Shown: positions 2,768 through 19,381 of the stretch, piece after piece | Position numbering within the stretch: position 1 is the stretch's first letter | Layout of the letters: each line of letters opens with the position of its first letter | Sequence record: AM265639.1 | Source: Pseudomonas phage LKA1 | Direction: 5' to 3' (one strand) | DNA length: 41,593 nt | Program-made: the position numbers and the translations under genes | Notes under the pieces: generated by a model | The model's input: only the letters and a program-made list of their open reading frames with translations | What the model was told of the DNA's origin: nothing | The model's database searches: none

Positions 2768-2781
2768 GCTGCACTCGCGGC
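2768..2781 (+). promoter_or_regulatory. Conserved hairpin element GCTGCACTCGCGGC, copy 1
   Basis: Lies in a 120-nt intergenic gap, 27 nt before the RBS and ATG at 2808. Followed by CGAAAACC. Confidence 0.4.
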
Positions 2782-2807
2782 TCGAAAACCGTGAAGACGA
2801 GGTGAGT

Positions 2808-2984
2808 ATGCGTACTGTAATCGAGAACATCCGGACCGGCGCCCGCTGGTCTACCGTAAACGGTGACGTGTGGCGCAAGGACTGGAACGGCACCGGAGAC
2901 AACTACGTCCAAGCTGGCGCAGTCTGCCCACGATTCAATCCCTTCAGCAAACGTAATGCGGGCAAGTTCCGCAAGGTGGCCTAG
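2808..2984 (+). CDS. Hypothetical early protein, 58 aa
   Basis: ATG 2808 preceded by GAGGTGAG. It is downstream of the conserved CTGCACTCGCGGC hairpin element at 2768-2781. Confidence 0.45.
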   Translation: MRTVIENIRTGARWSTVNGDVWRKDWNGTGDNYVQAGAVCPRFNPFSKRNAGKFRKVA

Positions 2985-2985
2985 T

Positions 2986-3306
2986 ATGCACAACGTCCAA
3001 GAAATCTTCCGCACCGTCATCGATCACAAGCACTACGCCGTCAGCACCGAGCGGTCTGAGTTCATGTGTTGTGCATTGTGCTTCGCTCTGATGGCACACG
3101 ATATCAGCCCCGACGAGTTCTGCGCGGCGAGGCGTGCCGTTGATGAGTACCTTGATGAGTTGGGTGCCCCGCAGGGTGGTCTGATGTACCACGCCTTGCA
3201 ACGTATCGGCGCTTGTCCTGAGGATATGAGCGCTTCCGTGTGGGCGCCCGAGGACGGTAAAGCGTTCTACTACAACTGGGACGAGCGCCCACGAAGGGGG
3301 AAATAG
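2986..3306 (+). CDS. Hypothetical early protein, 106 aa; tandem paralog A
   Basis: ATG 2986 immediately after the TAG of the upstream gene. The product (MHNVQEIFRTVIDHKHYAVSTERSEFMCCALCFALMAHDISPDE...) aligns along its length with the next ORF. Confidence 0.6.
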   Translation: MHNVQEIFRTVIDHKHYAVSTERSEFMCCALCFALMAHDISPDEFCAARRAVDEYLDELGAPQGGLMYHALQRIGACPEDMSASVWAPEDGKAFYYNWDERPRRGK

Positions 3307-3307
3307 C

Positions 3308-3616
3308 ATGTCCGTAGACGTTCAAGAAGTGTTCAACAAAGTCATCGACGCCGGCCTGTACTGGGCGGGCGAGGACTGCGAGCAGTTCATGTGCCACGCC
3401 CTATGGCGTGCACTCACCCTGCACATCATCAGCCACGACGAGCGCACGGCTGCCGGGGAAGCTATTCGGGAGTACGTGCATAGCATCGACCCCTTGGCGC
3501 ACGCTCTCGTTGGGGCGCTGGGCAGGAAGCTGCGGCACGCCCTGACCACGCCCGCCATGCGGGAAGGCAACCTCACAGAACTGTACCGGGACTGGGCGAA
3601 CCGCCCGATGCCGTAA
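3308..3616 (+). CDS. Hypothetical early protein, 102 aa; tandem paralog B
   Basis: MSVDVQEVFNKVIDAGLYWAGEDCEQFMCHALWRALTLHIISHDE... is clearly homologous to 2986..3306, with shared VQE(I/V)F, FMC.AL and ISxDE segments. It starts 2 nt after the paralog's stop. Confidence 0.6.
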   Translation: MSVDVQEVFNKVIDAGLYWAGEDCEQFMCHALWRALTLHIISHDERTAAGEAIREYVHSIDPLAHALVGALGRKLRHALTTPAMREGNLTELYRDWANRPMP

Positions 3617-3632
3617 CCGCTGCACTCGCAGC
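3611..3632 (+). promoter_or_regulatory. Conserved element CCGTAACCGCTGCACTCGCAGC, copy 2
   Basis: Perfect GCTGC-actc-GCAGC hairpin. Sits in the 45-nt gap before ATG 3662. Followed by CCGAAACC. Confidence 0.45.
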
Positions 3633-3661
3633 CCGAAACCCATCTCGATTAGGAGAGACCA

Positions 3662-4228
3662 ATGAACCAGCACCTTGCACGCATTCTCGTACATGGCTAC
3701 AAGGCCATGATCAAGCGCTACTTGGGTATGCCGAGCTTCAAGGGCGTCCGCATATTCACCGTAGATAAGCAATCCGACGCACCTCAGACACTGCACGCCC
3801 TGCGGGAGTACGTCAAGGAGCACCGTAGGCTCGTCGTGGCACTGGAGCACGGCGAGACCAGCATCTACGGCGATGCCAAGGCGAACGCTTGGTTCCGCGC
3901 CTTCCACGACTTGGGGCACCTCGTTTACAACCGAGAGATGACCTACGAGGAGGAGGTGTCGCTGGCCATGACCCAGTGGGGCGACCTAGTGCCCATCTTC
4001 CAAGAGATGGGCGCCACCCTGAACCTGATCCAAGACCTGTACCGTCTGTACCTGTTCGACACTGTTGGTCAGAGCCGGTACTGCTTGCTGACCGGGCGGT
4101 TCCCGAACGACCAGGTGGCTTTTGCCGAAACCCTGCACGCCGTACTGGACTGGGAAGTGGACGGTGCCGACGTGGTGCGTGGCGTGGATATGCTTGTGAA
4201 GAACGACCTGTTCCCGGAGTCGGTATGA
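3662..4228 (+). CDS. Hypothetical early protein, 188 aa
   Basis: RBS AGGAGAG before ATG 3662, downstream of conserved element copy 2. Contains an FHDLGH segment. No family assigned. Confidence 0.6.
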   Translation: MNQHLARILVHGYKAMIKRYLGMPSFKGVRIFTVDKQSDAPQTLHALREYVKEHRRLVVALEHGETSIYGDAKANAWFRAFHDLGHLVYNREMTYEEEVSLAMTQWGDLVPIFQEMGATLNLIQDLYRLYLFDTVGQSRYCLLTGRFPNDQVAFAETLHAVLDWEVDGADVVRGVDMLVKNDLFPESV

Positions 4229-4419
4229 TCTATCTGTACCTGTTCTCGCTACTGTGGAGCCTCTCCGCATGGGCGCTCATCAGCTTCCGCACCGATGAGA
4301 AGCTACTGTGGAACCTCATCGACAGCGCTGTATTTGCCGGTGTACTCACCACGATGCTCGCCGAGTATCAGTGGTGGGTTGGACTAGGGCGCAACATCCT
4401 GGAGTACATCAATGCGTAA
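4225..4419 (+). CDS. Small membrane protein, 64 aa
   Basis: ATGA overlap with the upstream stop. The product has two hydrophobic stretches (IYLYLFSLLWSLSAWALISF and AVFAGVLTTMLA). Confidence 0.45.
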   Translation: MIYLYLFSLLWSLSAWALISFRTDEKLLWNLIDSAVFAGVLTTMLAEYQWWVGLGRNILEYINA

Positions 4420-4696
4420 AGCAAAGTACAGCGTAGGCCAGCGCCTACGCACCGTGCGCGGCCCCGGTGGCGCACTCAATCCCGAACCCCGCTTCCTCGG
4501 GCACGTCGGTACAATCGTGAAGGTGCAGGAGTTCAAGACCTGCCAGCCGGTGTACGTGCTGGACTTCGAGGCACTGGGCGCGGATACCGTTGAGGAAGTA
4601 TGTCTGGAGGAACCCAGCCATGTACCGTCTCGCTCTCCCGTTCCTGGCGTTATCGTTCGCAATGCCGGGGTGCAGCACGCCGTCCACGGCACCTAA
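4412..4696 (+). CDS. Hypothetical protein, 94 aa
   Basis: ATG 4412 overlaps the upstream stop region. The last ~25 codons overlap the next ORF's signal peptide and look less protein-like. Confidence 0.4.
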   Translation: MRKAKYSVGQRLRTVRGPGGALNPEPRFLGHVGTIVKVQEFKTCQPVYVLDFEALGADTVEEVCLEEPSHVPSRSPVPGVIVRNAGVQHAVHGT

Positions 4697-4853
4697 CAAT
4701 CCCGGACAGCACTACTCGCGGCACGTCAACGAGGCGTTGCGGGTGTGCAACTCCGCTACCCTCGGCGCTATCACAGCCGGCATTATAAGCACGCCGCAGG
4801 AGGCCGAGCGCTTCCAGTGGCAGTGCCTTTCCGATAACAAAGCAACCCTGTAA
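4620..4853 (+). CDS. Putative secreted or lipoprotein-like small protein, 77 aa
   Basis: N-terminus MYRLALPFLALSFAMPGCSTPS is a hydrophobic signal with a Cys in lipobox-like position (imperfect, Pro at -2). Overlaps 4412..4696 by 77 nt. Confidence 0.4.
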   Translation: MYRLALPFLALSFAMPGCSTPSTAPNNPGQHYSRHVNEALRVCNSATLGAITAGIISTPQEAERFQWQCLSDNKATL

Positions 4854-4862
4854 GGAGTCGTT

Positions 4863-5168
4863 ATGTACCTACCACCTAAGACAGTCACCCGCCTGGAGCG
4901 GGAGGCGCCCGCCTACGTCTCGTTGCTCCTATCGGTGACGCAGGCGTACCACCTGTGCAAGCTCATGCACGATGCCGTGTCGGGCAGGGCACTGGATGAG
5001 ACCGGGCTGCGTGCAGTTTACGAAGCCCTCCTATCCGACTTGGGGCAGGCAGATATATGTGTGGGCTATCACCGCATATTCGACCACCGTGGACAGGCCG
5101 TGCGCTATATTGGCGCGCCAGACCTTAGCACCATAAAGCGCCTGGAGGAACTCGATGCACAAGCATGA
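4863..5168 (+). CDS. Hypothetical protein, 101 aa
   Basis: RBS AAGGAG before ATG 4863. Confidence 0.55.
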   Translation: MYLPPKTVTRLEREAPAYVSLLLSVTQAYHLCKLMHDAVSGRALDETGLRAVYEALLSDLGQADICVGYHRIFDHRGQAVRYIGAPDLSTIKRLEELDAQA

Positions 5169-5412
5169 AGGTATTGTGGTCGTGGCTTACAAGCCCGGCC
5201 AACCCCGTAGCGAGGTGGTCGCTGCCCTGGAACTTGCCGGCCTCGGCGATGACTTCACCGCCGACGTGCGCTTCAAGCGCCCCGGCAGTGAGGAAGGTGT
5301 GGCCGCCAAGGTGAACCTGTACCACGAGGCCGAGGCACTGGTGCAAGAACTGGAGGATGCCGGTATCAACGGCTGTATCTGCCAAGGTGGACACGGCTGG
5401 GAGGTCGTATGA
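5155..5412 (+). CDS. Hypothetical protein, 85 aa
   Basis: ATG 5155 overlaps the end of the upstream gene. Acidic product. Confidence 0.5.
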   Translation: MHKHEGIVVVAYKPGQPRSEVVAALELAGLGDDFTADVRFKRPGSEEGVAAKVNLYHEAEALVQELEDAGINGCICQGGHGWEVV

Positions 5413-5792
5413 CACTGAGAACTTACAAGGGCAACCCGGTGCCAGCTTGGGCGGAGTATGTGGTGGTCGGGCCGTTTAGTGATGAACTGTACTGGGCGAA
5501 TGATCACCGCCGCGCGAGCGAGTGTATCGCGGTCAGAGACAACCGGCACGTCCGCGAGGGCTGGCGCCGTGAGGAGCTGGACCCGCTTCCCGTCGAGGAA
5601 GTGTGGGTTGTGAGTGGCCAAGCGCTGGACTGCCGCACCAGTAACCGCTACAGGACTGAGGCAGAAGCCGCCGAACTCGCGTTTAAATTGGCCTGTATAT
5701 ACAAGGACGTGCCGTTCTACGTGGCCCGCGTCACCCAGAAGATCACCCAACCCAAGCCGGTCCTACCGGAACCTATCGTGGAGAAACTGTAA
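5409..5792 (+). CDS. Hypothetical protein, 127 aa
   Basis: ATGA coupling at both ends. Confidence 0.55.
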   Translation: MTLRTYKGNPVPAWAEYVVVGPFSDELYWANDHRRASECIAVRDNRHVREGWRREELDPLPVEEVWVVSGQALDCRTSNRYRTEAEAAELAFKLACIYKDVPFYVARVTQKITQPKPVLPEPIVEKL

Positions 5793-6055
5793 TGATCGCG
5801 TCCGCCAAACACACTGAAGTTATCGTCACTGATGACGCACCGGGCTGCCCTATCCCAGGCCGCACTCGATCCATCACCGCTGCATGTGGTCTCCGAGACC
5901 ACAGCAACACCGTCAGTATCTCTGTGGACAAAGTAGACGGCGATGTGAGTATCGCTATCTATGAGGACGACGACATGTACGACGGCCCTTGCCTGACCAA
6001 GGAAACCGCTCTGGCGCTGTGCGCCGCCCTCAAGTCTGAACTGGAGAAACTGTAA
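5792..6055 (+). CDS. Hypothetical protein, 87 aa
   Basis: TAATG coupling at both ends. The same 16-mer TGGAGAAACTGTAATG forms the junction at 5779-5794 and at 6042-6057. Confidence 0.5.
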   Translation: MIASAKHTEVIVTDDAPGCPIPGRTRSITAACGLRDHSNTVSISVDKVDGDVSIAIYEDDDMYDGPCLTKETALALCAALKSELEKL

Positions 6056-6234
6056 TGGCTAAAGCATGGCGTAAGATCAGCGGCGAGAACAAACGCATCC
6101 GCCGCCTCGGTATCATGGCCGACCGAGCATTCCGTGTGAACCCCGGTGTCAGCGCCCGCATGGCCTGGCTGCTGCGCAGCACTGGTGTGGTGCCGGCGCA
6201 TGACTACTCCCTGAAGACCAAGGAGGCCGTATGA
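6055..6234 (+). CDS. Hypothetical protein, 59 aa
   Basis: I translated this by hand; it is not in the track, being just under 60 aa. ATG 6055 overlaps the upstream TAA, and TGA 6232-6234 overlaps the ATG at 6231. Confidence 0.4.
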   Translation: MAKAWRKISGENKRIRRLGIMADRAFRVNPGVSARMAWLLRSTGVVPAHDYSLKTKEAV

Positions 6235-6434
6235 GTGGCAAGAGCTACACTGTAGAGCTGGTGAACGGTCGCGTGTTCCAGCACAGTAATATCGACGTGG
6301 TGCACAGCGACCGACACGGGCAGTTGAAGCTCATGCGGGAAGCTGAAAGCGGTCACAAGGCCGACCGAGAACTGGCCGCTGCCTACCAGATGGGCATGGT
6401 CCTGGCGTTTCAGGAGGTGCCCGTGGAGAGCTAG
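6231..6434 (+). CDS. Hypothetical protein, 67 aa
   Basis: RBS AAGGAGG before ATG 6231. Confidence 0.5.
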   Translation: MSGKSYTVELVNGRVFQHSNIDVVHSDRHGQLKLMREAESGHKADRELAAAYQMGMVLAFQEVPVES

Positions 6435-6520
6435 CAGATACCCGATTCCGCATAGAGTACCCCTAAAGATCGGGCATCTTCGCCGCCTAGCCCACGGCAC
6501 TACCGTACAGGAGCAACATC

Positions 6521-6874
6521 ATGACCGACCGTATCCAGAAACTGAACGACCAGATCGCTACCCTCGAAGCCAAGGCCGCCGAGCTGATTGCTAAGGCCAA
6601 TACCCTCCGCGAGGAGCTGGTATCCCTGGAGCGCATCCAGAGCATCGCCGAGCGTGACGCCGTGACCTTCGAGATTGGCCGCAAGGACGACAAGCAGCTC
6701 GTCACCGGCGTGGTGCTGGGCGTGGCCGACACCGACGCCGGCAAGCAGATTCGCGTCTTCGTCGAGGCCGGCTTCAACAGCACTACGTACACTCTCAAGG
6801 CCAGTCAAATCGTGGACGTACTGCGTCCGCAGACTGCCGAGGCTACTGAGGTCGCTGAGCAGCCTGCCGAGTAA
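6521..6874 (+). CDS. Hypothetical protein, 117 aa, coiled-coil N-terminus
   Basis: RBS CAGGAG before ATG 6521. N-terminus IQKLNDQIATLEAKAAELIAKANTLREELVSLE has a heptad-like pattern. Confidence 0.6.
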   Translation: MTDRIQKLNDQIATLEAKAAELIAKANTLREELVSLERIQSIAERDAVTFEIGRKDDKQLVTGVVLGVADTDAGKQIRVFVEAGFNSTTYTLKASQIVDVLRPQTAEATEVAEQPAE

Positions 6875-6892
6875 CATCGGGTCTCAGTGCAA

Positions 6893-6920
6893 GGGGCTGG
6901 CCGCATAACCGGCCCCTTCT
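6893..6920 (+). terminator. Candidate intrinsic terminator or RNA hairpin
   Basis: GGGGCTGG-ccgcataa-CCGGCCCC stem-loop followed by TTCT. The U-run is weak. It sits in the 105-nt gap before conserved element copy 3. Confidence 0.3.
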
Positions 6921-6928
6921 GCGGATAC

Positions 6929-6950
6929 CCGTAACCGCTGCACTCGCAGC
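6929..6950 (+). promoter_or_regulatory. Conserved element CCGTAACCGCTGCACTCGCAGC, copy 3
   Basis: 22-nt identity with copy 2. Lies in the 105-nt gap before ATG 6979, after the candidate hairpin at 6893-6920. Confidence 0.45.
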
Positions 6951-6978
6951 TCAATTTCTGTAACGACGAGGTGAGACC

Positions 6979-7428
6979 ATGAAAGCTACTAAGAACCTGA
7001 ACGGCGCTGCTCGCGTGGCTGTGCAAGCTAAGCTGGACGCGGCTGACAAGGAGCTGCGCAAGGCCCGTGACCTGGTGCAACAGCGCACCGAGGAGCTGGG
7101 GCGGGTGCGCGAGACTGTGCGCCGGTACCCCGGGGAGAACGAGGACTTGCGCAATCAGCTTGCCCAGGCAAACCACCAGATCAAGTGGCTCGGTGGGAGC
7201 TGCCGTAAGCACCTCGACACCATCCAGGCCCTGGAGGCCAAGCAAGTGGACCACGACGAGTTCGTGGAGAAGATGGAACTGGAACTCGACATTGCCGAGG
7301 AGCAGATTCAGTACCACAAGGAGCGAATCACTACGGTGAAGTGGATAGCCTACGCCCTGTGCGGTGCGGTCGTAGGATTGGCCTGGAAGCTCTCCCAGCA
7401 CATCGGTTGGTTCGGGGGTGTGCTGTGA
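6979..7428 (+). CDS. Membrane-anchored coiled-coil protein, 149 aa
   Basis: RBS GAGGTGAG before ATG 6979. Long heptad-like region and a C-terminal hydrophobic segment WIAYALCGAVVGLAWKL. Confidence 0.55.
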   Translation: MKATKNLNGAARVAVQAKLDAADKELRKARDLVQQRTEELGRVRETVRRYPGENEDLRNQLAQANHQIKWLGGSCRKHLDTIQALEAKQVDHDEFVEKMELELDIAEEQIQYHKERITTVKWIAYALCGAVVGLAWKLSQHIGWFGGVL

Positions 7429-7453
7429 GCCTCAACGCGGGCTGGAGGTCAAG

Positions 7454-8175
7454 ATGAGTGGGCAAGTGAAGCTAAACCATAGCGCCGACGACGTGGCACA
7501 GATGCGTAGAGACTGGGCAGAGAGTTCCCACTTCGACGCGCCCGCTGATTTGCCAGGGCTCCTCGATGATTACGACGCCATGCACGCAGAGGCCGAGGCG
7601 CTGCGGGCTGAGAATGCAAAATGGCAAAGAAGCCATCAGGATATCCATGAGCCGGCATTACGTGAAGCCCATGCGTATATCCAAGAACTGCGCACCGAGC
7701 TGGAGGAGGCGCAGGGATTGCTGCGCGATATGCGCCACGCCGCGCGCATTAACCCCTCCTGCCAGCAGGGCATGGTAAATCCTTGCCGCTGTGGGTATTG
7801 CGTTGACTTGCGAATTGACGCTTTCCTCACCTCCACCCAGGCGCCGGAAGCGCGGGACCATATTGAGCGTCACCTCACAATGGCCGAGCAGGGAGAGCGG
7901 CAGGAGGCAGTGGCGTGGGCGTTAGCAAATAGCGCAGACGAGATTGGCGGGTTTGCGCCGATTTATTACACCAAAGAAGGCGCGATCAGTTGGCAAATGG
8001 CCGGAACATTTTCCCGCTCTACACCACCCCGCAGCCAGGCCCGGACGTGCGGGCGCTGGTGGAGGCGCTGGAAGGAATACTCGAGTATTTCCCAGTGGGC
8101 AATTCTGACGGCGAATGCTTCAGCATCGAAAAAGCCGAGAAAGCCCTATCCGCCCACCGCCAGGCGCAATCGTAA
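7454..8175 (+). CDS. Hypothetical protein whose coding signal moves to the +1 frame near 7990 (frameshift or indel)
   Basis: GGAGG then ATG 7454. The product looks protein-like up to ...YYTKEGAISWQMAG at about 7997. After that the same frame runs on with no stop for ~370 nt of Arg/Trp-rich, low-GC3 sequence. The +1 frame from 7990 (ANGRNIFPLYTTPQPGPDVRALVEALEGILEYFPVGNSDGECFSIEKAEKALSAHRQAQS) has about 75% GC3 and ends in TAATG, coupled to the primase start at 8175. Confidence 0.4.
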
Positions 8176-8978: not shown

Positions 8979-8994
8979 TGAGGAATTGGAGGCT

Positions 8995-9141
8995 ATGGAT
9001 CGCGCCCACGCTGCCGTGGCGAAGGCGCAGCGGGAGTGCGGGCATTACTACTGTCGCCCGGTCGAATGGTACTGGAGCGGCGCGGTGCGCGTAATGCAGT
9101 GTGATGACTGCGGCTCGCAAGACTTCCGGGAGGAGCAATGA
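8995..9141 (+). CDS. Small zinc-ribbon protein, 48 aa
   Basis: GGAGG before ATG 8995. Contains CGHYYC ... CDDCGS Cys pairs. Confidence 0.35.
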   Translation: MDRAHAAVAKAQRECGHYYCRPVEWYWSGAVRVMQCDDCGSQDFREEQ

Positions 9142-9347
9142 GCAACCGTGACCAACCGATCCACATGCTCCGGTACTGGATCAATGATAAGGGTATCGAG
9201 AGGCTGTCGGAGTATTACCCGAAGCTGACCAAGAACGACGCCGAGATTCGTGCGGCCTTGGAGCACCGTGCCTTGGCCGAGCGAGCGTTGCTGTCCAGGG
9301 TCGATGAATTGATGGGCCTAGCGGGCGACGAGGATGATTATGAGTAG
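9138..9347 (+). CDS. Hypothetical protein, 69 aa
   Basis: ATGA coupling with the upstream stop. Overlaps the helicase start. Confidence 0.45.
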   Translation: MSNRDQPIHMLRYWINDKGIERLSEYYPKLTKNDAEIRAALEHRALAERALLSRVDELMGLAGDEDDYE

Positions 9348-11407: not shown

Positions 11408-12413
11408 GAAGCCCCGCCTCTGGCACCCGAGGCCGCACCGTGCGGTGGACTGGAACCAGAAGGCAATCGAGAAGCGTCTGGCCCAAGGCCCGCTCCAGGC
11501 CTGTGTGAAGGTGGATGGGTTCCGCGTACTGATCCGCCTGAACTGCGAAGGGGACGTGGTGTTCACGACCCGCGAGGGTATTGAAATCAGCAGCTTGTCT
11601 GGACTTGCGGAGCACGTCTGTCGCACCCTGTTCACGCCAGATACACCAATGCGGCGCGTGTACGACGGTGAGGTCTGGATCAAGGGCATCCCGTTCGAGG
11701 AGATGTCCGGCCTACTGCGCCGTGATACCCGCCTACCCGACGAGCACCTGAAGAACGTGCACGTCCTGATCTTCGACGTGGGACTACTTGAGGACTACGA
11801 AGGCCCGGACGAGGATCGTGTGCCGAATGTGCTGACCTTGGAGGAGCGTCGCCGACTCATTGGTGCCTTGGGCCTGGCCCCATTCCGCCCGCTGATCGAG
11901 CAACCCACGACCCTGTTGGTCTACGAGCAGTATTGGACCGTCTACACAGTGGGTGGCATCCAGGAGCTGTACCAGCGTGCCCGGGCAGCCGGGTACGAGG
12001 GCCTGATCCTCAAGGACCCCCACCTCTTACCCCGCAACGGCAAGGTGTCCGGGTGGTGGAAGGTGAAGCCTGGTTGCGGCGCCGAGTTCGCGCCTGGGTT
12101 CGAGGCGGATGGTACTGTCATCGACTACGTGTGGGGCGACCCCGATAAGGCGAACGCCAATAAGATCGTCGGGTTCCGGGTACGTCTGGAGGACGGGGCT
12201 GAAGTAAACGCAACCGGGTTGACGCAAGACCAGATGGCCTGTTACACCCAGAGCTACCACGCAACCGCCTATGAGGTTGGCATCACCCAAACCATCTACA
12301 TTGGCCGCGCCTGTCGCGTCTCCGGTATGGAGCGCACTAAAGATGGCAGTATCCGCCACCCACACTTCGACGGGTTCCGCGACATCGACGGGGCTGAGGG
12401 TCTGAAAGCATGA
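11397..12413 (+). CDS. ATP-dependent DNA ligase, 338 aa
   Basis: Adenylation motif I CVKVDGFRVLI (KxDG). Size and position match T7 gp1.3-like ligases. Confidence 0.85.
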   Translation: MSTKKPRLWHPRPHRAVDWNQKAIEKRLAQGPLQACVKVDGFRVLIRLNCEGDVVFTTREGIEISSLSGLAEHVCRTLFTPDTPMRRVYDGEVWIKGIPFEEMSGLLRRDTRLPDEHLKNVHVLIFDVGLLEDYEGPDEDRVPNVLTLEERRRLIGALGLAPFRPLIEQPTTLLVYEQYWTVYTVGGIQELYQRARAAGYEGLILKDPHLLPRNGKVSGWWKVKPGCGAEFAPGFEADGTVIDYVWGDPDKANANKIVGFRVRLEDGAEVNATGLTQDQMACYTQSYHATAYEVGITQTIYIGRACRVSGMERTKDGSIRHPHFDGFRDIDGAEGLKA

Positions 12414-12589: not shown

Positions 12590-14961
12590 AGGTACGGACA
12601 ATAGATTTGGAGTGCGAGAACAAACCGTGGTACGGGCAGCTCGCGTCCCCGCACAACCCTGAGAACTACGTGGTCATGCCCGGTTGGTGTGACGACATCT
12701 TCGGCGGCACCCCTGGCCCGGTACAGCACCTGCACTTCACCTCGCTGGAGGATGAGCGCAGTTGTAACTGGTTCAACCTCGACGGGGTAGACCTCCTCGT
12801 AGCACACAACGCTGGGTACGAGGTGTCCTGGTTCCTGACCCGCTACCGCGACGAGTTCGAGAAGTTCCTCAAGCGTGGTGGCCGGGTGCTTTGTACCCAG
12901 ATGGCCGAGTACATCCTGTCGAACTTCACCGACACGTACCCGAGCTTGGACGAGACTGCGCCGAAGTACGGTGGTACTCACAAGATCGATGCGGTGAAGG
13001 AACTGTGGAAGCAGGGGCACCTCACCAGCCAGATCGACCCGAAGCTCCTGGCCGAGTACCTCGCCGGTCCCGAGGGTGACGTGGAGAACACCCGCCGCAC
13101 CTTCTACGGGCAGATGGCTCTGCTCCAGGAGCGCGGGCAGTGGGGGCTGTTCCTGGAGCGCTGCGAAGCCCTACTGGCCTTCGCGTACTGCGAGTTCTTC
13201 GGCCTGTACGTGAACACCGAGGTGGCCGAGGCTAACCTGGCGAAGCAGGAAGCTGAGCTGGCCGAGCTGCGAGCCGAGGTGCAGAAGCTCCTGCCCGAGT
13301 TGCCCGAGCACTTCGAGTTCAACTGGGGCAGTGACTACCACCTCAGCGCCCTACTGTTCGGCGGTCCGGTGAAGTACAGGACCCGCGTACCCCGCACCGA
13401 TGCCGGTGGCCTGGTAATGTACGAGAAGGATGAGTGTTACAAGCTCGGTGACAAATTCATCGATGTGGCCTACCTTAACGCCCAGGACGAGGCGGTGGTT
13501 GCACACCTAATCCGAGAACACGGCAACCCGGATCGTTACAAGGCCGGCAAGAACAAGGGCGAGTTGAAGATTCATAAGGTTGAATCTGACCACCCGCAGA
13601 TGAAGTGGGACGACGCGGTGTTCGTGTTCCCCGGCGTCATCTGGATTCAGCAACTGCCCTCGAACATCCAGGAGAAGTTCGAGTACCACGGCAAGGACTC
13701 TCGCAAGAACGGGGATTGGACCGGCGCCCGCCTGCTGTGCGACGATAAGACCCCGGTGTACAGCACCAGCTCGGAGGTGCTGGAGGTGCTGGCCAAGCAC
13801 GGCTTCGAGGCCGCCGATAAGCTCTCCCGCATGGCGTCCCTGGAGAAGGATAACGGCACGTACTACCGCTCTGTGGAGTACGACAAGGAGGGCAACGTCA
13901 AGAAGGTCAAGGGGATGCTCCAGTACGTCCAGCCGGACGGGATCATCCACCACAGCTTGAACCTTTGCGCCACCGCCACTGGTCGCCTGTCCTCCTCGTA
14001 CCCGAACCTCCAGAACCTCCCGCGAGACGGCACCAGCCGAGTCAAGGAGATGTTCGAGTCCCGCTTCGGGACTGCCGGGCGGATCATCGAAGTGGACTAC
14101 TCAGCCCTGGAAGTGGTGATGCTGGCTGCGCTCAGCGGCGACGAGAACCTGCTGGAGCAGCTCGTCAAGGGCACGGACATGCACTGCCTGCGTCTGGCCG
14201 CGAAGCTCGGTGAACCCTACGAGGAGGTGCTGCACAAGGCAGTCGAGAACCAGGCGCATCCGGAGCACAAGCGGTACAAGCAGATGCGGACGGACATCAA
14301 GCCACCTAGCTTCGCCGCTCAGTACGGGGCCAGTGCCGAGGGTATCGCATACGCCACCGGTGTATCTGTCGAGTACGCCAAGGAGTTCCTGGAGACAGAG
14401 GCCCGCCTGTTCCCGCAGAGCATCGCGTTCCGTGGGGTTGTGCGTGCTGAGGTCGAGCGTACCGGCGAGCTGCCCGAGGGCCTGCACCGCGAGCAGGACG
14501 AGGCCACTGGGGCGTGGCGAATCTACCGCCGAGGTTACTGGCAGGCGCCAGGTGGTGCGCGTTACAGCTTCCGGCAGTGGCCGCAGTGGAACAAGGAGCT
14601 GCGCCAGCGCGTCATGGACTACAAGGACACCCAGATCGCCAACTACTGGTGCCAGGGCGAGGCGTTCTACCTCATGGCTGTATCGGCGGGTCGGGTACTG
14701 CGTTGGCTCCTGTCCGTGAACTTCCTAGCGAACGAGGAGTTCCCGCAAGGTCGCGTGTGCTTCATCAACAACGTACACGATGCGCTGTACTTCGACGTAC
14801 ACGAATCGGTGGTACGGGAGGTGGGCCTCCAGGTTAAGGCCATCATGGAAGACGCGCCGAAGTACATGAGCGAGCGCCTCGGCTACAACATCGCACACGT
14901 CCCGTTCCCGGCAGCCGCTGAGGCAGGGCTTAACATGGCAGATAAGGAGCACATCCATTGA
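12586..14961 (+). CDS. DNA polymerase, family A, with 3'-5' exonuclease domain, 791 aa
   Basis: Exo I motif IDLECEN. Pol motif A EVDYSALEVVMLAAL, motif B RTDIKPPSFAAQYGAS, motif C VHDALYFD. Confidence 0.95.
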   Translation: MKVRTIDLECENKPWYGQLASPHNPENYVVMPGWCDDIFGGTPGPVQHLHFTSLEDERSCNWFNLDGVDLLVAHNAGYEVSWFLTRYRDEFEKFLKRGGRVLCTQMAEYILSNFTDTYPSLDETAPKYGGTHKIDAVKELWKQGHLTSQIDPKLLAEYLAGPEGDVENTRRTFYGQMALLQERGQWGLFLERCEALLAFAYCEFFGLYVNTEVAEANLAKQEAELAELRAEVQKLLPELPEHFEFNWGSDYHLSALLFGGPVKYRTRVPRTDAGGLVMYEKDECYKLGDKFIDVAYLNAQDEAVVAHLIREHGNPDRYKAGKNKGELKIHKVESDHPQMKWDDAVFVFPGVIWIQQLPSNIQEKFEYHGKDSRKNGDWTGARLLCDDKTPVYSTSSEVLEVLAKHGFEAADKLSRMASLEKDNGTYYRSVEYDKEGNVKKVKGMLQYVQPDGIIHHSLNLCATATGRLSSSYPNLQNLPRDGTSRVKEMFESRFGTAGRIIEVDYSALEVVMLAALSGDENLLEQLVKGTDMHCLRLAAKLGEPYEEVLHKAVENQAHPEHKRYKQMRTDIKPPSFAAQYGASAEGIAYATGVSVEYAKEFLETEARLFPQSIAFRGVVRAEVERTGELPEGLHREQDEATGAWRIYRRGYWQAPGGARYSFRQWPQWNKELRQRVMDYKDTQIANYWCQGEAFYLMAVSAGRVLRWLLSVNFLANEEFPQGRVCFINNVHDALYFDVHESVVREVGLQVKAIMEDAPKYMSERLGYNIAHVPFPAAAEAGLNMADKEHIH

Positions 14962-15155
14962 GCAACTACACTATCACAACCACGCACGGGGCCTACCGGC
15001 TGACTGGCTGTACGCAGTACCGCTGGACGCTCGGCATCCTCGGGCCACGCCGACTTCTAATCGGGAACGCGCAGGATAAGGTTATCTTCATGGCCCCGGC
15101 TGCGGAGGTCCTCTCTGTCACGCAGGACGACCATCTACTGGAATACACGCCATGA
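14958..15155 (+). CDS. Hypothetical protein, 65 aa, probable TTG start
   Basis: Strong SD AAGGAG 8 nt before TTG 14958. No in-frame ATG near the 5' end. ATGA coupling at the 3' end. Confidence 0.4.
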   Translation: MSNYTITTTHGAYRLTGCTQYRWTLGILGPRRLLIGNAQDKVIFMAPAAEVLSVTQDDHLLEYTP

Positions 15156-15376
15156 GCGCCCCAACTTATAACGTGACGGTGGTGTGGCGCGAGGCGCCCA
15201 GCACCCCGGAACAGCCAGCCGAGCTGGCGACGAATTACGGCTACTGCTACCAACCGCAGCTTGCGCAAGGTGGCCACGCCGTACTACTGGAGCACGCCCA
15301 GTCCGGGCGGCTTCACTTCATCAACCTGAACGCAGTACAGTGCATTAACGCCACCCCAGTACCGGAGAAAGTATGA
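15152..15376 (+). CDS. Hypothetical protein, 74 aa
   Basis: ATGA coupling at both ends. Confidence 0.45.
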   Translation: MSAPTYNVTVVWREAPSTPEQPAELATNYGYCYQPQLAQGGHAVLLEHAQSGRLHFINLNAVQCINATPVPEKV

Positions 15377-16317
15377 GCCAGAAACTACAAGCACTACTCG
15401 CCCTTGCCAACGCCGCCGCCGAAACCGCTGAGGTAGACCTCAGCCAAGTATCCAAGGGCAGTGGCGGTGGTAAGCTCTACCCCGCAGGCTACGCCTTCGC
15501 CCGCTTCGTGCGGTACATCGAGTTCGGTATGCACCCGCAGGAGTTCCAGGGTAAGGCCAAGGACCCTGCGCTGGAGTACCGCCTGGGCTTCGCCCTGTTC
15601 GGTGAGGGCTACCAGAACGATGACGGCACCCCTGGCTTCATCTCGACCTATGACATGAAGATCAGCAACAACGAGAAGGCGGGCACGAAGATCATCTTCG
15701 ACAAGATGAACTGGAAGGGCCAGGCCAAGCACTTCGCGCAGATGCTCGGCGACGCCTTCCTCGTGAAGATCGAGCACAAGGACATCAAGGACCAGCCCGG
15801 TAAGAAGCGCAGTGTCCTGAATCTGAAGGAGACCCTGCCGCCCATCGACGTGGTGAGCAAGCAGCCGTACCAGATTCCCCAGGTGGACGACGACCTGCTC
15901 GACCTGTTCCTGTGGTCACACCCGACCAAGGAAGCCTGGGACGCCATGCACATCGAGGGCACCAATGAGACCACCGGCAAGTCCAAGAACTTCTTGCAAG
16001 AGAAGTGCCTCCAGGCCATCGACTTCCCTGGCTCGGCCCTGGAACAGCTCCTGCGCGGCACGGGCAACCTGCCGTCCCCAGAGCAGCTCGCCGCTATGGC
16101 ACCTACGGCGCCCGCAGTAGCGCAAACGCCGGCCACCCCTAACATCCCTACCGCCCCGGCTATCCCCGCTGCCAGCGCGCCCGTGGCGCCTGCTGTGCCG
16201 CAGGTCCCGGCAGTGCCTCAAGTGCCTGCTGTACCCCAGGTGCCGGTAGCCCCAGTCGTCCCGGACGTGCCCTTCGAGGGCGGTGTCCCGGCAGCGCCGG
16301 GGGTAGCCCAGGCATGA
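15373..16317 (+). CDS. Hypothetical protein with Pro/Ala/Val-rich repetitive C-terminus, 314 aa
   Basis: Globular N-terminal 230 aa, then PTAPAVAQTPATPNIPTAPAIPAASAPVAPAVPQVPAVPQVPAVPQVPVAPVVPDVP. The PAVPQV units come from an 18-bp tandem DNA repeat at about 16195-16250. Confidence 0.6.
   Translation: MSQKLQALLALANAAAETAEVDLSQVSKGSGGGKLYPAGYAFARFVRYIEFGMHPQEFQGKAKDPALEYRLGFALFGEGYQNDDGTPGFISTYDMKISNNEKAGTKIIFDKMNWKGQAKHFAQMLGDAFLVKIEHKDIKDQPGKKRSVLNLKETLPPIDVVSKQPYQIPQVDDDLLDLFLWSHPTKEAWDAMHIEGTNETTGKSKNFLQEKCLQAIDFPGSALEQLLRGTGNLPSPEQLAAMAPTAPAVAQTPATPNIPTAPAIPAASAPVAPAVPQVPAVPQVPAVPQVPVAPVVPDVPFEGGVPAAPGVAQA
16195..16250 (+). repeat. Degenerate 18-bp tandem repeat (x3) encoding PAVPQV units
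   Basis: ccgcaggtcccggcagtg / cctcaagtgcctgctgta / ccccaggtgccggtagcc within 15373..16317. Confidence 0.7.
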
Positions 16318-17270
16318 GGACTATCCGAGGCGTGGATGTAGCCGCCCTCGGGGACCAGTTCGACCGGATGGTGCCTAACCGGGTACTGCTGCTGGATGGC
16401 GATGGGGCGGCGTACCGCTCCAGCGCCACGGTGAAGACTCTTGACACTGCTGTTCGGCGGTTTGTCAAGGAGGTTCTCACCGACCAGTTCCTCACCGGTG
16501 CCGAGGAGGTGCGCGTGCACCTCACCGGCCAGGGTGGTCAGAAGGCCCTACGGGGCCTGTATCCGACGCGGAAGCCGTACCAGGGCAACCGTAAGGGTAA
16601 GCCTAAACCGGCGCTCCTGGAGCCGCTGCGGGAGCTTCTGGGCACCGAGAGGCGCTTCGAGTACGGATTCCCCGAGAACATCGTGGTGCACCTGCATCGG
16701 TACTGGGAGGCCGACGACGCCCTGGTCCAGGACGGCGTGCTCTACGGCGCCCGCTCCGTCACGAAGTCTGATGACAAGGACCTCCGGTTGACACCCGCCC
16801 CGTTCTATGAGTCGGAGAAGGGCAAGATCGACGTACTCCCCGATGGCGACCGCTTCGGCTGGATCGACGCCGGGTACACGCCATCTCTGTCGCTCCGTGT
16901 CAAGGGGCATGGGACGAAGTTCTTCTGGGCACAGATGCTCATGGGCGACACGGCGGATCACGTCCGTGGCCTGGAGCGCTGGGAGGGCAAGCTCATCGCA
17001 GAGGCCGGTACCCTGGACGTGCTAGGCCCTGTAGAGGACGAGAACGAGGCGGCCAACCGTATCTTATGGGCATACGCCAAGATCGGCCAGGACGCGCTCG
17101 CAGAGGCCCAGGTGCTGTGGCTGCGCCGCTCCGAGCAGGACTGCGCGTACCGCTACCTCTGTGAACTGGACCTTGACAAGAACCTGCGGACGTGGTTGGA
17201 TCAGTTGAACGGCTACCACCAAGCAGTCATCAAGCAGAAGCTGGAGGAGCGTGATGCGGAAGCTGACTAG
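16314..17270 (+). CDS. Putative 5'-3' exonuclease (FEN/T7 gp6-like), 318 aa
   Basis: N-terminal VLLLDGDGAAY resembles the first acidic cluster of FEN-family nucleases. Position between polymerase and endonuclease VII. Assignment by motif and position only. Confidence 0.5.
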   Translation: MRTIRGVDVAALGDQFDRMVPNRVLLLDGDGAAYRSSATVKTLDTAVRRFVKEVLTDQFLTGAEEVRVHLTGQGGQKALRGLYPTRKPYQGNRKGKPKPALLEPLRELLGTERRFEYGFPENIVVHLHRYWEADDALVQDGVLYGARSVTKSDDKDLRLTPAPFYESEKGKIDVLPDGDRFGWIDAGYTPSLSLRVKGHGTKFFWAQMLMGDTADHVRGLERWEGKLIAEAGTLDVLGPVEDENEAANRILWAYAKIGQDALAEAQVLWLRRSEQDCAYRYLCELDLDKNLRTWLDQLNGYHQAVIKQKLEERDAEAD

Positions 17271-17679
17271 AACGCAGCTCAGGGGCTGGTCGATCAGCCA
17301 CCTCACGAACGCGCAGGGTGGCCTCTGTCCGCTCTGTGGTAAGCCGATTGACTACAGCATCCCACGGGAAGCGGTGGTCGATCACGACCACGATACAGGC
17401 GAAATCCGGGGCGTCCTGCACCGATCCTGTAATGCGGCGGAAGGCAAGGTCAGCAACGCAGCCGGTAGGTGGGGTGCCAAGAGCACTAGCTACGCCGATA
17501 TCGTGCCGTTCCTGGAGAATCTGGTCCAGTACCTGAAAAGCACCGGTACTGGGTTAATGTACCCAGGCCACAAGTCACCCGAAGAAGCCGCCGAGGCGAA
17601 GCGGGTAAAACGCAATAAAGCAGCAGCAGTGCGCCGGGCAGCCGCCAAGGTCCGCACCATGCCGCGTAAGGAGACCTGA
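17254..17679 (+). CDS. Recombination endonuclease VII, 141 aa
   Basis: CPLCGKPID ... VVDHDHDTGEIRGVLHRSCNAAEG matches the endonuclease VII zinc/His signature (C-x2-C ... DHDH ... RG.LC..CN). GGAGG before ATG 17254. Confidence 0.8.
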   Translation: MRKLTRTQLRGWSISHLTNAQGGLCPLCGKPIDYSIPREAVVDHDHDTGEIRGVLHRSCNAAEGKVSNAAGRWGAKSTSYADIVPFLENLVQYLKSTGTGLMYPGHKSPEEAAEAKRVKRNKAAAVRRAAAKVRTMPRKET

Positions 17680-18710
17680 TGGGTAAGCACCTCGTAACAC
17701 GCAAGAGCTTCTCGGACGAGGACATTGCCAAGGCACTGTTGGTTGGCGGTGGTAACAAGACCCACGCAGCACAACACCTCACGAATATGGGACGCGGGGT
17801 AGTAAGTCGGGAACTCCTGCGACACTGGTTAAAACAGGGTAAAAAGAATTGTCGCACTAGCATGAGTGAAACGACGGGCGAGCAGGCCGGATGTGCCACG
17901 AGTGCTGCGGGAACGGGGACCCGCCCCGTCGAAGACGGCCCATGTATCCTGAGCATCGACATCGAGACGAGTCCCATCGAAGGTCGAGTGTGGGGACTCT
18001 GGAAGCAGAACCTCGGACTGAACCAGATCACCAAGGAATGGAACATCCTCAGCTACTGTGCGAAGTGGCTGGGTGATCCTAACGTGATCTACTCCGACCT
18101 CTCCCAGGCAGAGAACATTGCAGATGATAGTAAGCTAGTAGCTGAGCTGTACGAACTGCTGAATGAAGCAGACCTTGTAGTGGCACAGAACGGTAAGCGA
18201 TTCGATCTACCGAAGATTCAAGCCCGCTTCGTGATGGCTGGTTACAAACCACCTCGCCCGTTCCGCGTAATCGACACCATGCTCATGGCGAAGCAGCAGT
18301 TCGGCTTCACCAGTAACAAGCTGGAGTGGATGACCGACAAACTCTGCACCACCAAGAAGCGCAAGCATGAGAAGTTCCCCGGTATGGAGTTGTGGAACCA
18401 GTGCTTGGCAGGCAACCCGGAAGCCTGGGAGGAGATGCGGCTGTACAACATCGACGACGTAATCTCGTTGGAGGAGTTGTACTTGATCCTACGCCCCTGG
18501 TATCAAGGCCATCCGAACGTGGCGGTGTTCAACGATGGGCAGGAGATCGCTTGTCCGAAGTGCGGCTCGCACGACCTCAAGCGCGATGGGTGGACATTCA
18601 CCCAGTCCGGTAAGTACGAGCTTTATCATTGCAACGGTTGCGGCGGTTACAGCCGTGGACGCTACACCAAAAACTCGAAGGAGGTGCGTTATGCCCAGCT
18701 ATCCAATTGA
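17679..18710 (+). CDS. DEDD-type exonuclease with N-terminal HTH-like segment and C-terminal zinc ribbon, 343 aa
   Basis: ILSIDIETSP is a DEDD exo motif I (DxE). C-terminal CPKCGS ... CNGCGG. The first ~60 aa (DIAKALLVGGGNKTHAAQHLTNMGRGVVSRELLRHWL) look like a separate HTH. The T7-promoter-like motif B and an in-frame ATG (17862) sit exactly at that boundary. Confidence 0.6.
   Translation: MGKHLVTRKSFSDEDIAKALLVGGGNKTHAAQHLTNMGRGVVSRELLRHWLKQGKKNCRTSMSETTGEQAGCATSAAGTGTRPVEDGPCILSIDIETSPIEGRVWGLWKQNLGLNQITKEWNILSYCAKWLGDPNVIYSDLSQAENIADDSKLVAELYELLNEADLVVAQNGKRFDLPKIQARFVMAGYKPPRPFRVIDTMLMAKQQFGFTSNKLEWMTDKLCTTKKRKHEKFPGMELWNQCLAGNPEAWEEMRLYNIDDVISLEELYLILRPWYQGHPNVAVFNDGQEIACPKCGSHDLKRDGWTFTQSGKYELYHCNGCGGYSRGRYTKNSKEVRYAQLSN
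17847..17860 (+). promoter_or_regulatory. T7-promoter-like motif, copy B
   Basis: aaaagaattgtcgcactagcATGagtg lies inside the exonuclease ORF. It is immediately followed by an in-frame ATG at the boundary between the HTH and exonuclease parts. Confidence 0.45.
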
Positions 18711-19197
18711 ATACACCTATGAATCCGAGCGCTACTTCTACAGAATCCCCAGCAAACTAGGCCGAGGGTACGGGTATGATTACTGGAGCAAGGAAGGTTC
18801 CGCATGGGTGGGTGGGTACGGTACGCCCGTAGAACCGCCCCTGGTGGGCGGGGAAAGGAGCGACGCCGCCTTCAAGGCGGACACCGGCAAGTCTCGCTGG
18901 ACCCTCCTACTGGACTGCGCCAGGGGTTGTGGTCGGGCAGTGCGTGCCGTGGTTCGTGTACTGAACTTCGCAGTGCGCCCTATCGCTGACGGTGGCAAGG
19001 GGTACATCCCGCATTCGTGGCGCCAAGTACCGGACGCACGTACCCGCTATGAGGATGCCCTGCACCGCCACCTCGACGCGATCCGTGACGGTGAGACTCA
19101 CGATGGCGAGAGCGGCGAGTCGCACTGGGCACACGTTGCCACGAACGCACTGTTCCTCTGGGAACTCGATAATCCGAAGGAGAAGACTGATGAGTGA
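18691..19197 (+). CDS. Hypothetical protein, 168 aa
   Basis: GAAGGAGG before ATG 18691. Overlaps the upstream 3' end by 20 nt. Confidence 0.5.
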   Translation: MPSYPIEYTYESERYFYRIPSKLGRGYGYDYWSKEGSAWVGGYGTPVEPPLVGGERSDAAFKADTGKSRWTLLLDCARGCGRAVRAVVRVLNFAVRPIADGGKGYIPHSWRQVPDARTRYEDALHRHLDAIRDGETHDGESGESHWAHVATNALFLWELDNPKEKTDE

Positions 19198-19381
19198 GTG
19201 CCTATCGTGCTTGCGCGGCCCTGGCTGCTGCAAACTGTTCCCACGGAAAGTCTTCAATGCAGAGGTACTCGACATCAACGAGCTGCGCGTGTACCACGCC
19301 AGGAACGTAGATGAAGCCGCTGCACTCGCGGCTGAGGAGTTCGGCGAAAACAACATTGGCCGCGTGTACCCTAAGCTCTAA
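19190..19381 (+). CDS. Hypothetical protein, 63 aa; carries hairpin element copy 4
   Basis: ATG 19190 overlaps the upstream stop. The GCCGCTGCACTCGCGGC palindrome lies inside its 3' part, about 60 nt before the RNAP start. Confidence 0.4.
   Translation: MSECLSCLRGPGCCKLFPRKVFNAEVLDINELRVYHARNVDEAAALAAEEFGENNIGRVYPKL
19316..19332 (+). promoter_or_regulatory. Conserved element GCCGCTGCACTCGCGGC, copy 4
   Basis: Perfect GCCGC-tgcactc-GCGGC palindrome about 60 nt before the RNAP start. It is embedded in the 3' part of the small upstream ORF. Confidence 0.4.

Follow-up and report, generated by a model that had tools for sequence, protein, structure and literature searches.

Localized single-strand interruptions (nicks) in phage DNA have been known for decades, from T5, phiKMV and tf, without an enzyme or a function being attached to them. 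Here we analyse a short repeated element, referred to below as the early motif, in Pseudomonas phage LKA1 (AM265639.1; one strand of 41,593 nucleotides, hereafter the window), and compare it with the sequence that accompanies such nicks in the phiKMV group. The early motif is real, is under strong constraint on sequence rather than structure, is confined to one strand, is independent of the promoter motif of the phage RNA polymerase (RNAP) and occurs in four phage lineages. Our favoured, though tentative, explanation is drawn by analogy: the early motif may be a strand-specific signal in the DNA that a protein recognises, equivalent in the LKA1 lineage to the phiKMV nick-associated consensus.

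In the phiKMV group, localized single-strand interruptions are marked by the consensus 5'-CGACNNNNNCCTA/CTCCGG-3', ascribed to Kulakov et al. 2009 in PMC3517423, PMC3604761, PMC4482731 and bioRxiv 10.1101/619015; the last of these puts the number in phiKMV-group phages at four nicks. For Ab05, PMC4482731 notes a surplus of reads at phiKMV nick sites. The consensus takes the form CGAC-N5-CCTA/CTCCGG-CCTTAAAT, and in the phiKMV record the features annotated as 'putative bacteriophage specific promoter' at 6306, 13979 and 24121 hold exactly CGACNNNNNCCTACTCCGG, giving three exact copies, all on the plus strand. The motif of LUZ19 was described as 'the only detectable intergenic motif', at 3132, 6755, 14415 and 24767, with 'no relation to transcript abundance' (PMC3604761), and the later LUZ19 map of transcription start sites (TSS) gives the phage promoters a different motif (PMC10914365). 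In KP34, a repeated early motif was predicted as a promoter and suggested as a possible nick site (PMC4411677), and in vitro KP34 RNAP makes no transcript from it (PMC6834552). The nick motifs of phiKMV and tf share a one-strand distribution (PMC3517423, PMC11780129).

In LKA1, the exact 14-mer GCTGCACTCGCRGC occurs at 2768, 3619, 6937 and 19319, with all four copies on the plus strand (4:0) and none expected from 100 dinucleotide-preserving shuffles. The four copies of the original prediction are thereby recovered, as is the identity of copies 2 and 3 over 22 nt. When up to two mismatches are allowed, six 14-mers are found against 2.2 expected; this is no enrichment, and the signal is carried by the exact copies. 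A 51-nt direct-repeat family with 65-76% identity includes copies 1-3, which end 26, 29 and 28 nt 5' of the ATG codons at 2808, 3662 and 6979, in keeping with the earlier remark that they lie shortly before start codons. Their layout is a stop codon, the core, an A/T block and a ribosome-binding site (RBS), and the consensus of the motif reads (stop codon)-CC-GCTGYACTC-NCRGC-YYRAAWTT. Copy 1, with its A-rich tail TCGAAAACC, covers 2760-2792 (core GCTGCACTCGCGGC at 2768-2781; nhmmer E 4.8e-8). Copy 2 covers 3610-3639 (core GCTGCACTCGCAGC at 3619-3632) and takes in the TAA of the upstream gene at 3614-3616. Copy 3, with its CTCAATTT block, covers 6928-6961 (core at 6937-6950; nhmmer E 8.4e-9), and the ATG that follows it at 6979 opens the first gene of the primase/helicase module. 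Placement between genes holds, as first proposed, for these three copies; copy 4 (19319-19332) is not intergenic but an exact 14-mer inside the open reading frame (ORF) 18992-19381, 58 nt 5' of the RNAP ATG at 19391. The C-terminal part of this ORF weakly matches the T7 Gp2 family of RNA polymerase inhibitors; its 3' part is the Gp2-like gene for an inhibitor of host RNAP, at the position known for LKA1 g36, directly upstream of the RNAP gene (PMC5537680). Read in frame, copy 4 is GCT GCA CTC GCG GCT (AALAA); it scores 13.9 bits with a position weight matrix (PWM) against 39-45 for copies 1-3, and its flanks are unlike theirs.

The nearest record in the phage collection is HHBS14_1, with about 90% identity across 72% of the first 20 kb of the window. 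LKA1-like early regions were compared from phage records (L001, L002) and from IMG/VR (L004, L005, L019), together with assemblies that encode homologues of the 149-amino-acid protein following copy 3 (L021-L027) or homologues of the RNAP and helicase (L028-L035). Copy 3 is at the syntenic site, before the gene that precedes the primase gene, in 10 of 10 LKA1-like genomes, and the motif recurs upstream of other early genes. Orthologues of copy 1 are present in L001, L024 and L027, and those of copy 2 in L004, L021 and L027, with a variant form in L035; copy 2 was not found in HHBS14_1, whose gene cassette differs there. Conservation in relatives, the check originally proposed for the element, is strong: the motif and the 5' untranslated region are almost invariant even where the downstream protein is 60-65% identical, and in L024 and L027 (60-63% identical to the LKA1 protein) the 45 nt from motif to ATG hardly change. 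Such retention beside a diverged protein indicates a functional cis element.

Homology between genomes often starts or stops precisely at the early motif. The gene after copy 1 is replaced in L001, with motif and RBS retained, and is different in HHBS14_1; in L021 and L005 it is the gene before copy 3 that differs, and no hairpin is present there. The element is therefore tied to neither neighbour and marks mosaic junctions. In eight LKA1-like genomes, every PWM hit that reaches 12 bits is on the plus strand, and two members, at 5697 in L032 and at 318 in L031, lie within long ORFs. A pattern scan of IMG/VR returned, besides LKA1-like contigs, only scattered coding matches. Copy 4 is conserved in L001 and is absent from L028 (RNAP 84% identical), where GCAAGCCTCGCAGC codes for the same Ala-rich peptide.

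Two weaker matches complete the picture in LKA1. The 9-mer core GCTGCACTC has a fifth, partial copy (GCTGCACTCCCGCT, 1640-1648, plus strand) inside the first early ORF (1571-1843); it is confined to close relatives, the protein region there is not conserved in L024, L032 and L033, and it is probably no functional member. The variant GCTGTACTCGCAGT at 22239-22252 (plus strand, two mismatches, nhmmer E 0.011) lies about 0.4 kb 3' of the RNAP gene, within an ORF, and L001 and L028 have the identical sequence; the relative MR7 carries the similar CTGTACTCGC inside its annotated GNAT gene. This variant may be a minor member of the family. MR7 has no clear copies of the early motif, and none was found between 22.3 and 41.6 kb of LKA1 in the two-mismatch and PWM scans.

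The core CTGYACTCRCAG(CTCAATTT) is also present in Aeromonas phage Ahp1, Cronobacter phage GAP227 and Acinetobacter phage Acibel007, so that one motif family spans the LKA1-like Krylovirinae, the Melnykvirinae and the Beijerinckvirinae. Versions of it are already listed as promoters predicted in silico by motif-finding software (PHIRE/MEME) for two of these phages: five 'phage promoters' predicted with PHIRE in Ahp1, with the consensus TGGCTGCACTCGCAGATGGT (PMC5014404), and five predicted phage-specific promoters in Acibel007 (PMC4128745), from which PMC11475235 takes CTGTACTCACAGCTCAATTT as its 'promoter prediction'. We find eight exact TGCACTYGCAG copies on the plus strand of Ahp1 and none on the minus strand (expected 0.16), eight plus and one minus matches to TGCACTCGCAG with up to one mismatch in GAP227, and six plus and no minus exact copies of CTGTACTCACA in Acibel007 (expected 0.06). 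As in LKA1, the predicted promoters of Ahp1 and Acibel007 share the core, lie on the plus strand only (6-8 copies) and mostly stand 13-56 nt before early or middle genes; unlike LKA1, these phages have more copies, some of them in DNA polymerase, RNAP, portal or tail-tube genes, and longer intergenic stems. In Ahp1, five copies are located 13-56 nt 5' of early genes and three within the DNA polymerase, RNAP and portal genes, and GAP227 likewise has copies inside long genes of this set. The DNA polymerase copies, at 11519 in Ahp1 (L036) and 10253 in GAP227 (L037), occupy roughly the same place in different frames (AALAE versus LHSQ), which suggests selection on the nucleotide sequence within the coding region. 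The Acibel007 copies TAACCTGTACTCACAACTCAATTCTT and CTGTACTCACAGCTCAATTT are nearly identical to the extended copy 3 of LKA1, TAACCGCTGCACTCGCAGCTCAATTTCT, although the G+C contents are 41% and 61%; the two phages share the tail CTCAATTT and a leading TAACC. The RNAP gene of Acibel007 has one copy at its very end. Between LKA1 and these phages the products of the first gene have no detectable homology, and the early proteins are unrelated.

We then considered whether the sequence or the fold is conserved, using an alignment (A2) of 19 distinct intergenic copies from 10 LKA1-like genomes. Columns G11-C19, save the fifth (C/T), and C21 are invariant; these are the 5' arm and the loop, GCTGYACTC.C. 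The 3' arm takes the forms GCGGC, ACGGC, GCAGC, GCAGA, ACAGC, CCGGC, CCACC and CCAAT. Within the 5-bp stem, 90.5% of the cells are paired, no better than in column shuffles, double (compensatory) changes are seen in 0 of 5 pairs, the covariation score falls under the shuffle mean, and the closing bases do not pair in 6 of the 19 copies. The L035 copies GCTGTACTCCCACC and GCTGTACTCCCAAT cannot form the stem and still keep the 5' half GCTGTACTCC. The sole systematic variation compatible with pairing is at position 12, A or G opposite U3 (UG in 12 copies, UA in 7), which pairs through G.U in plus-strand RNA; the DNA inverted repeat is accordingly imperfect in 12 of 19 copies. An operator built on that inverted repeat, one of the functions suggested earlier, is thus a weak proposal, with a T.G mismatch at the repeat centre in these 12 copies and an element that is strictly orientation-specific. 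The perfect 5-bp stem attributed to every copy exists in copies 2 and 3, where a small hairpin of about -8 kcal/mol forms; copies 1 and 4 can build it only through a G.U wobble or a register shift, and they fold in other registers.

Larger hairpins do precede copies 1 and 3, as had been observed. The one 5' of copy 1 (2687-2732, plus strand) is conserved in L001 and L027. The one 5' of copy 3 (6892-6919, plus strand) is a separate structured element, terminator-like, with an 11-bp stem and a weak U tract (CCCCUUCUGCGG); two of its pairs show compensatory double changes among five relatives, so the method is able to detect real structure in the region. L021 and L005, which lack this hairpin, retain the motif. 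L033 and L034 have hairpins analogous to it, with different sequences. No Rfam match was obtained at E up to 1 over positions 1-22500. The emphasis first placed on the hairpin is therefore not borne out in the LKA1 clade, where the constraint acts on sequence and the fold is not the conserved feature.

These data bear directly on an RNA-level explanation, which we regard as possible but rather doubtful. According to this explanation, a small GCUGC-ACUC-GCRGC hairpin with a conserved loop in the polycistronic early/middle transcript would be bound by a sequence-specific protein or would direct an RNase E cut in the A/U stretch (for example CUCAA/UUU). Such a cut would divide the mRNA some 20 nt ahead of the next RBS and leave a hairpin at the 3' end of the upstream piece, and stability or translation would become cistron-specific. 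Restriction of the motif to the transcribed strand, its fixed position between stop codon and RBS, the A/U-rich block that follows it in most relatives, the A/G variation at position 12, which keeps U3 paired in RNA but not in DNA, and the 90.5% of paired cells are all in its favour. Copies within coding regions are compatible with a processing site. Outside the LKA1 clade, the intergenic copies of Ahp1, GAP227 and KP34 have longer stems built from different flanking bases (6-8 bp in Ahp1 and GAP227), and two KP34 copies differ by a compensatory pair (G-C to A-T), so that a single-stranded form may matter in those lineages. The absence of compensatory change and the lost closing pairs in the 19 copies argue against such an RNA element, as does the retention of GCTGTACTCC in the unfoldable copies of L035. 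In addition, copies 1 and 2 of LKA1 have no U-rich RNase E context, RNase E requires no conserved 9-nt sequence, no candidate RNA-binding protein was identified, the Rfam search gave no match, and 5 bp is too short for RNase III, which makes the RNase III site of the original prediction implausible.

Promoter function was evaluated against a second repeat family in LKA1, AATTGTCGCACTAG, with four copies. Three are on the plus strand, at 17847-17860 inside the gene for an exonuclease subunit, at 21825-21838, where the repeat takes in the final two bases of the RNAP ORF (end 21826) and runs on past it, and at 31509-31522 in the structural region. The fourth, at 463-476 on the minus strand, is antisense at the left end and mirrors LUZ19 P001 (PMC10914365). 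Promoters of this kind have been characterised in three related phages. In LUZ19, phage-specific promoters P001 and P007-P009, with the motif GgtTATGTCACacACAnnGG, were mapped by ONT-cappable-seq (PMC10914365); in KP34, promoters with the motif TAATGTTACAGGAGTA at 475, 22197 and 33721 were established by rapid amplification of cDNA 5' ends (5'-RACE) and in vitro transcription (PMC6834552); and the AS12 promoters GAAGTTACACTTATAGAAGG were validated by primer extension (PMC5537680). The layout of AATTGTCGCACTAG equals that of the LUZ19 and KP34 promoters, and its sequence resembles the promoters of AS12, KP34 and LUZ19. The position of the 21825 copy matches that of the strong KP34 promoter (PMC6834552), of LUZ19 P007/8 (PMC10914365) and of the validated AS12 promoters. 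Judged from sequence and position, the AATTGTCGCACTAG copies are probably the promoter set of the LKA1 RNAP.

The late motif varies per genome (GTCGCACTA, GTCACACTA, GCGACACTA). Every late copy is GTCACACTA in L030/L032 and GCGACACTA in L029/L033, and the early motif in these genomes is still GCTGCACTCGCGGC. An early motif that stays fixed while the late motif changes points to a different, more conserved reader. Validated T7-type promoters of KP34, AS12 and LUZ19 are like the early motif in being short, asymmetric and orientation-specific, with few copies per genome and a CACT/ACTC-like core; unlike it, they correspond to AATTGTCGCACTAG, occupy sites behind the RNAP gene, within the structural region and, in antisense orientation, at the left end, and co-evolve with each RNAP. 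The early motif neither takes up these canonical positions nor co-evolves with the RNAP. Repeats after the RNAP genes of Ahp1 (A/T-rich) and Acibel007 (GTTACAC-type, a few hundred bases 3' of the gene, beyond gp33 and a terminator) are likewise likelier promoters than the early motif.

An accessory (class II-like) promoter, through which the phage single-subunit RNAP would drive early and replication genes after Gp2-like shut-off of the host polymerase, is an unlikely explanation on this evidence. It can draw on GCACTnGCA, which is common to the early motif and the probable late promoter (CACTAGCA versus CACTCGCA), and on the ACTC core, which recalls T7 GACTCAC and would place +1 at position 12 (R). 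Copy 3 also heads the replication module, which has no AATTGTCGCACTAG upstream, terminator-like hairpins stand ahead of copies 1 and 3, two unrelated classes of promoter are reported for KP34 RNAP (PMC6834552), one Acibel007 copy is at the end of its RNAP gene, and software has called promoters in Ahp1 and Acibel007 (PMC5014404, PMC4128745). The constancy of the early motif where the late promoter changes (L030/L032, L029/L033) speaks against it, as do the conservation of the early motif across subfamilies, which exceeds that of the validated promoters, and the G+C-rich equivalent of positions -4 to -1. Moreover, analogous early repeats are inactive for KP34 RNAP (PMC6834552) and have no TSS or transcript signal in LUZ19 (PMC3604761, PMC10914365).

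A middle promoter, as suggested in the original prediction, is possible, and the analogous elements of LUZ19/phiKMV (PMC3604761, PMC10914365) and KP34 (PMC6834552) argue indirectly against it. In its specific form, a middle promoter or operator used by host RNAP with the help of a phage early protein, with weak -35-like GTRRCC and -10-like nAAWTT flanking a 14-mer that would serve in the spacer as the binding site of the factor, we consider it very unlikely. The geometry is suggestive, with GTAACC or GTGACC, a 16-nt spacer formed by the motif, and then CAATTT, GAATTT or TAAAAT; the copies are placed directly after terminator-like hairpins; and a small basic protein encoded by the first early gene is conserved in all LKA1-like genomes. 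However, a lenient scan finds no sigma70-like pair at any copy, in agreement with the earlier statement that no obvious sigma70 hexamers are seen, and places such sites instead at 519, 692, 1021 and 1176. A usable -10 is missing from copies 1 and 2 (GAAAAC, GAAACC), and the -35-like bases are mostly the stop codon of the upstream gene (TAA, TAG, TGA). The phages of Aeromonas, Cronobacter and Acinetobacter share the motif while their first-gene products have no detectable homology, members within long ORFs are left unexplained, and the spacing and GG of sigma54 sites are not present.

By comparison, the LKA1 element has much in common with the phiKMV sites, which the original prediction overlooked together with the separate motif at canonical phage-promoter positions. 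In both phages the motif is the most over-represented intergenic one, with 3-4 copies per genome, all on the plus strand. The grammar is shared by copies 1-3, copy 4 excepted: a stop codon, an ACTC core followed by (G)CGG(C), an A/T block (TTAAAT/TCAATTT), 25-37 nt, an RBS and ATG. The A/T blocks are CCTTAAAT in phiKMV and CTCAATTT or CTTGAATTT in LKA1. Copy 3 and the phiKMV site at 6314 are both just 5' of the primase module, and the phiKMV consensus, like the motif versions of Ahp1 and Acibel007, was first labelled a phage promoter. The systems differ in that LKA1 has no CGAC-N5 arm, with a gap from stop codon to ACTC of 7 nt against 12 in phiKMV, and in that its copies cluster in the first 7 kb, apart from one ahead of the RNAP gene, and are absent from the structural region. 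A variant in L035, GCTGTACTCCCACCTAAAATTG, and the phiKMV consensus are mutual top 3-5 ungapped matches in whole-genome scans, a top-tier but not unique correspondence. On this analogy, the LKA1 element would work like the nick-associated consensus and is plausibly related to it, rather than a demonstrated member.

Several lines of argument converge on a signal at the DNA level. Members inside long ORFs (copy 4, L032, L031, Ahp1 and GAP227) fit a DNA mark better than a promoter-plus-RBS cassette, and the constraint on sequence, the strand specificity, the independence from the RNAP promoter and the occurrence in phages of four host genera with unrelated early proteins point the same way. Of the signals characterised by experiment in this group of phages, only the nick site answers to that description, and the nick reading is the one favoured. 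The number of copies, about four per LKA1 genome as with the four nicks of the phiKMV group, is counted for it as well. Precedents are the phiKMV consensus, first annotated as a promoter, the KP34 motif, inactive with KP34 RNAP in vitro, and the LUZ19 motif, unrelated to transcript abundance. If so, a phage-encoded or phage-directed nicking activity would read the asymmetric core on duplex DNA and cut one strand within the ACTC centre or next to it, by the phiKMV analogy at GCTGCA/CTC, leaving about four ligatable nicks per LKA1 genome. Sites just 5' of early and replication genes may suggest a role in expression or in the start of replication or recombination, a link that Kulakov et al. reportedly proposed for the phiKMV nicks.

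A number of observations weigh against this assignment. Nicking of LKA1 DNA at the motif is something we infer from the analogy, and LKA1 is reportedly not listed among the nicked phages of Kulakov et al. 2009. The phiKMV consensus CGACNNNNNCCTACTCCGG has no better-than-chance match in LKA1 at up to three mismatches, and none at the copies. The phiKMV nick sites are not among the hits of an nhmmer profile built on the LKA1-type element, so that the link rests on architecture and the one bridging variant of L035. In phage Andromeda, where nicks were shown experimentally and no consensus is known, we found no related motif. Nicking alone explains neither the tight spacing to the start codon, which is 26-31 nt for most copies, nor the conserved A/T block, though the phiKMV sites share both. 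Finally, the extended stems or compensatory pair of Ahp1, GAP227 and KP34 hint at a single-stranded form, either RNA or single-stranded DNA.

A broader version of the nick hypothesis we consider quite unlikely. In this version, CTGYACTCRCAG(CTCAATTT) would be a hitherto unrecognised pan-lineage cis signal of those Autographiviridae in which the RNAP gene ends the DNA-metabolism cluster. A conserved phage protein would act strand-specifically in the ACTC loop of a hairpin that forms transiently, either cutting there or forming a covalent complex; this Rep/HUH-like or nickase-like initiation would couple early expression to the start of replication or recombination, and the phiKMV 'nicks' would be the footprint of the same system.

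Other candidates were tried and rejected. For sigma54 (TGGCAC-N5-TTGC, with GG and GC 10 nt apart), inspection shows that CTGCAC has TG for GG and that the second GC is 2 nt too close; comparison by eye with the consensus sequences of extracytoplasmic function (ECF) sigma factors, RpoH and AlgU fails on spacing or key bases. Mimicry of a Csy4/type I-F CRISPR repeat, considered for the common CUGC...GCAG lower stem, disagrees with the 3' arm being the variable half and with the poor overall similarity to the repeat. Antitermination of the N/boxB kind by the basic 90-amino-acid product of the first gene does not fit the lack of hairpin covariation or the non-homologous first-gene proteins of LKA1 and Ahp1, and autoregulation by the downstream 149-amino-acid protein was dropped since this protein consists of a coiled coil and a C-terminal transmembrane helix and is no nucleic-acid binder. 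The lambda-type nut/boxB hairpins and the mobile regulatory cassettes of T4 (PeSL) offer analogies. Like the LKA1 motif, boxB has a 5-bp stem, a conserved loop and several copies in early transcripts, and PeSL are repeated cassettes at mosaic junctions, with genes between copies that differ among relatives. The LKA1 motif differs from them in that no N-like partner was identified, covariation is absent, the hairpin is lost in L035 and there is no promoter component as in PeSL.

Beyond the listing of promoters in Ahp1 and Acibel007, four points appear new: the span of one motif family across the three groups named above, the co-existence of the early motif with T7-type promoters from which it is distinct, the hairpin not being a conserved feature in the LKA1 clade, and the parallel with the grammar of the phiKMV nick consensus. 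None of the four was found stated in the searchable literature, key subscription papers being outside its reach. A second and wider-spread consensus with the same genomic grammar would let comparative genomics seek a co-occurring protein, and the nick reading, if true, predicts four exact positions in LKA1. Once the early motif is set apart from the true T7-type promoters, AATTGTCGCACTAG becomes a usable promoter prediction for LKA1-like phages. A polymerase-screening study took the motif as the cognate promoter of the Acibel007 RNAP; of eight active enzymes, PMC11475235 names six that equal or surpass T7, and this RNAP-motif pair, R13, is not one of the six. Mislabelling of the motif as a promoter may account for some of the in vitro transcription failures with such promoters.

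The window carries a direct terminal repeat of 298 bp at its ends, the length also quoted for LKA1 in PMC3765740, and old terminal fragments of phage phiPLS27 match its left end. The phiPLS27 'rpoN-type' promoters (606-620 and 797-812) correspond to good sigma70-type sites in LKA1, at about 519-547 and 692-719; the sigma70-type sites of the LKA1 left end read TTGACG/TTGACA, 16-17 nt, TAGAGT/TAAGAT. The first early gene (1571-1843) encodes a very basic, conserved 90-amino-acid protein (RKLRRKANRQQRR...; C-terminal KAKRKLNDVWTNR..GFWNP; phrog_14276) in all LKA1-like genomes. Between copies 1 and 2, two adjacent small genes at 2986-3306 and 3308-3616 are paralogous (phrog_35632), and this cassette is swapped for other genes in HHBS14_1. 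Among the comparison set, L002 (PQ287641.1, HHBS51_1) is a 76-kb 'complete genome' whose LKA1-like early region, at about 5.8-12.3 kb, adjoins unrelated genes in the opposite orientation; it looks like a chimeric assembly. The L033 and L029 contigs, both from run SRR17380414, each end at the promoter repeat AATTGCGACACTAGCATGAGAGAAGCG and are probably a single genome split by it. Lastly, MR7 (L041) has a lone intergenic GTAACCCTTCCCGCACAGGCATTTAAATCTG at 16811-16841, which matches phiKMV nick site 2 ACGACCCTTCCCTACTCCGGCCTTAAATCTT at 18 of 31 ungapped positions, tied with the best random matches.

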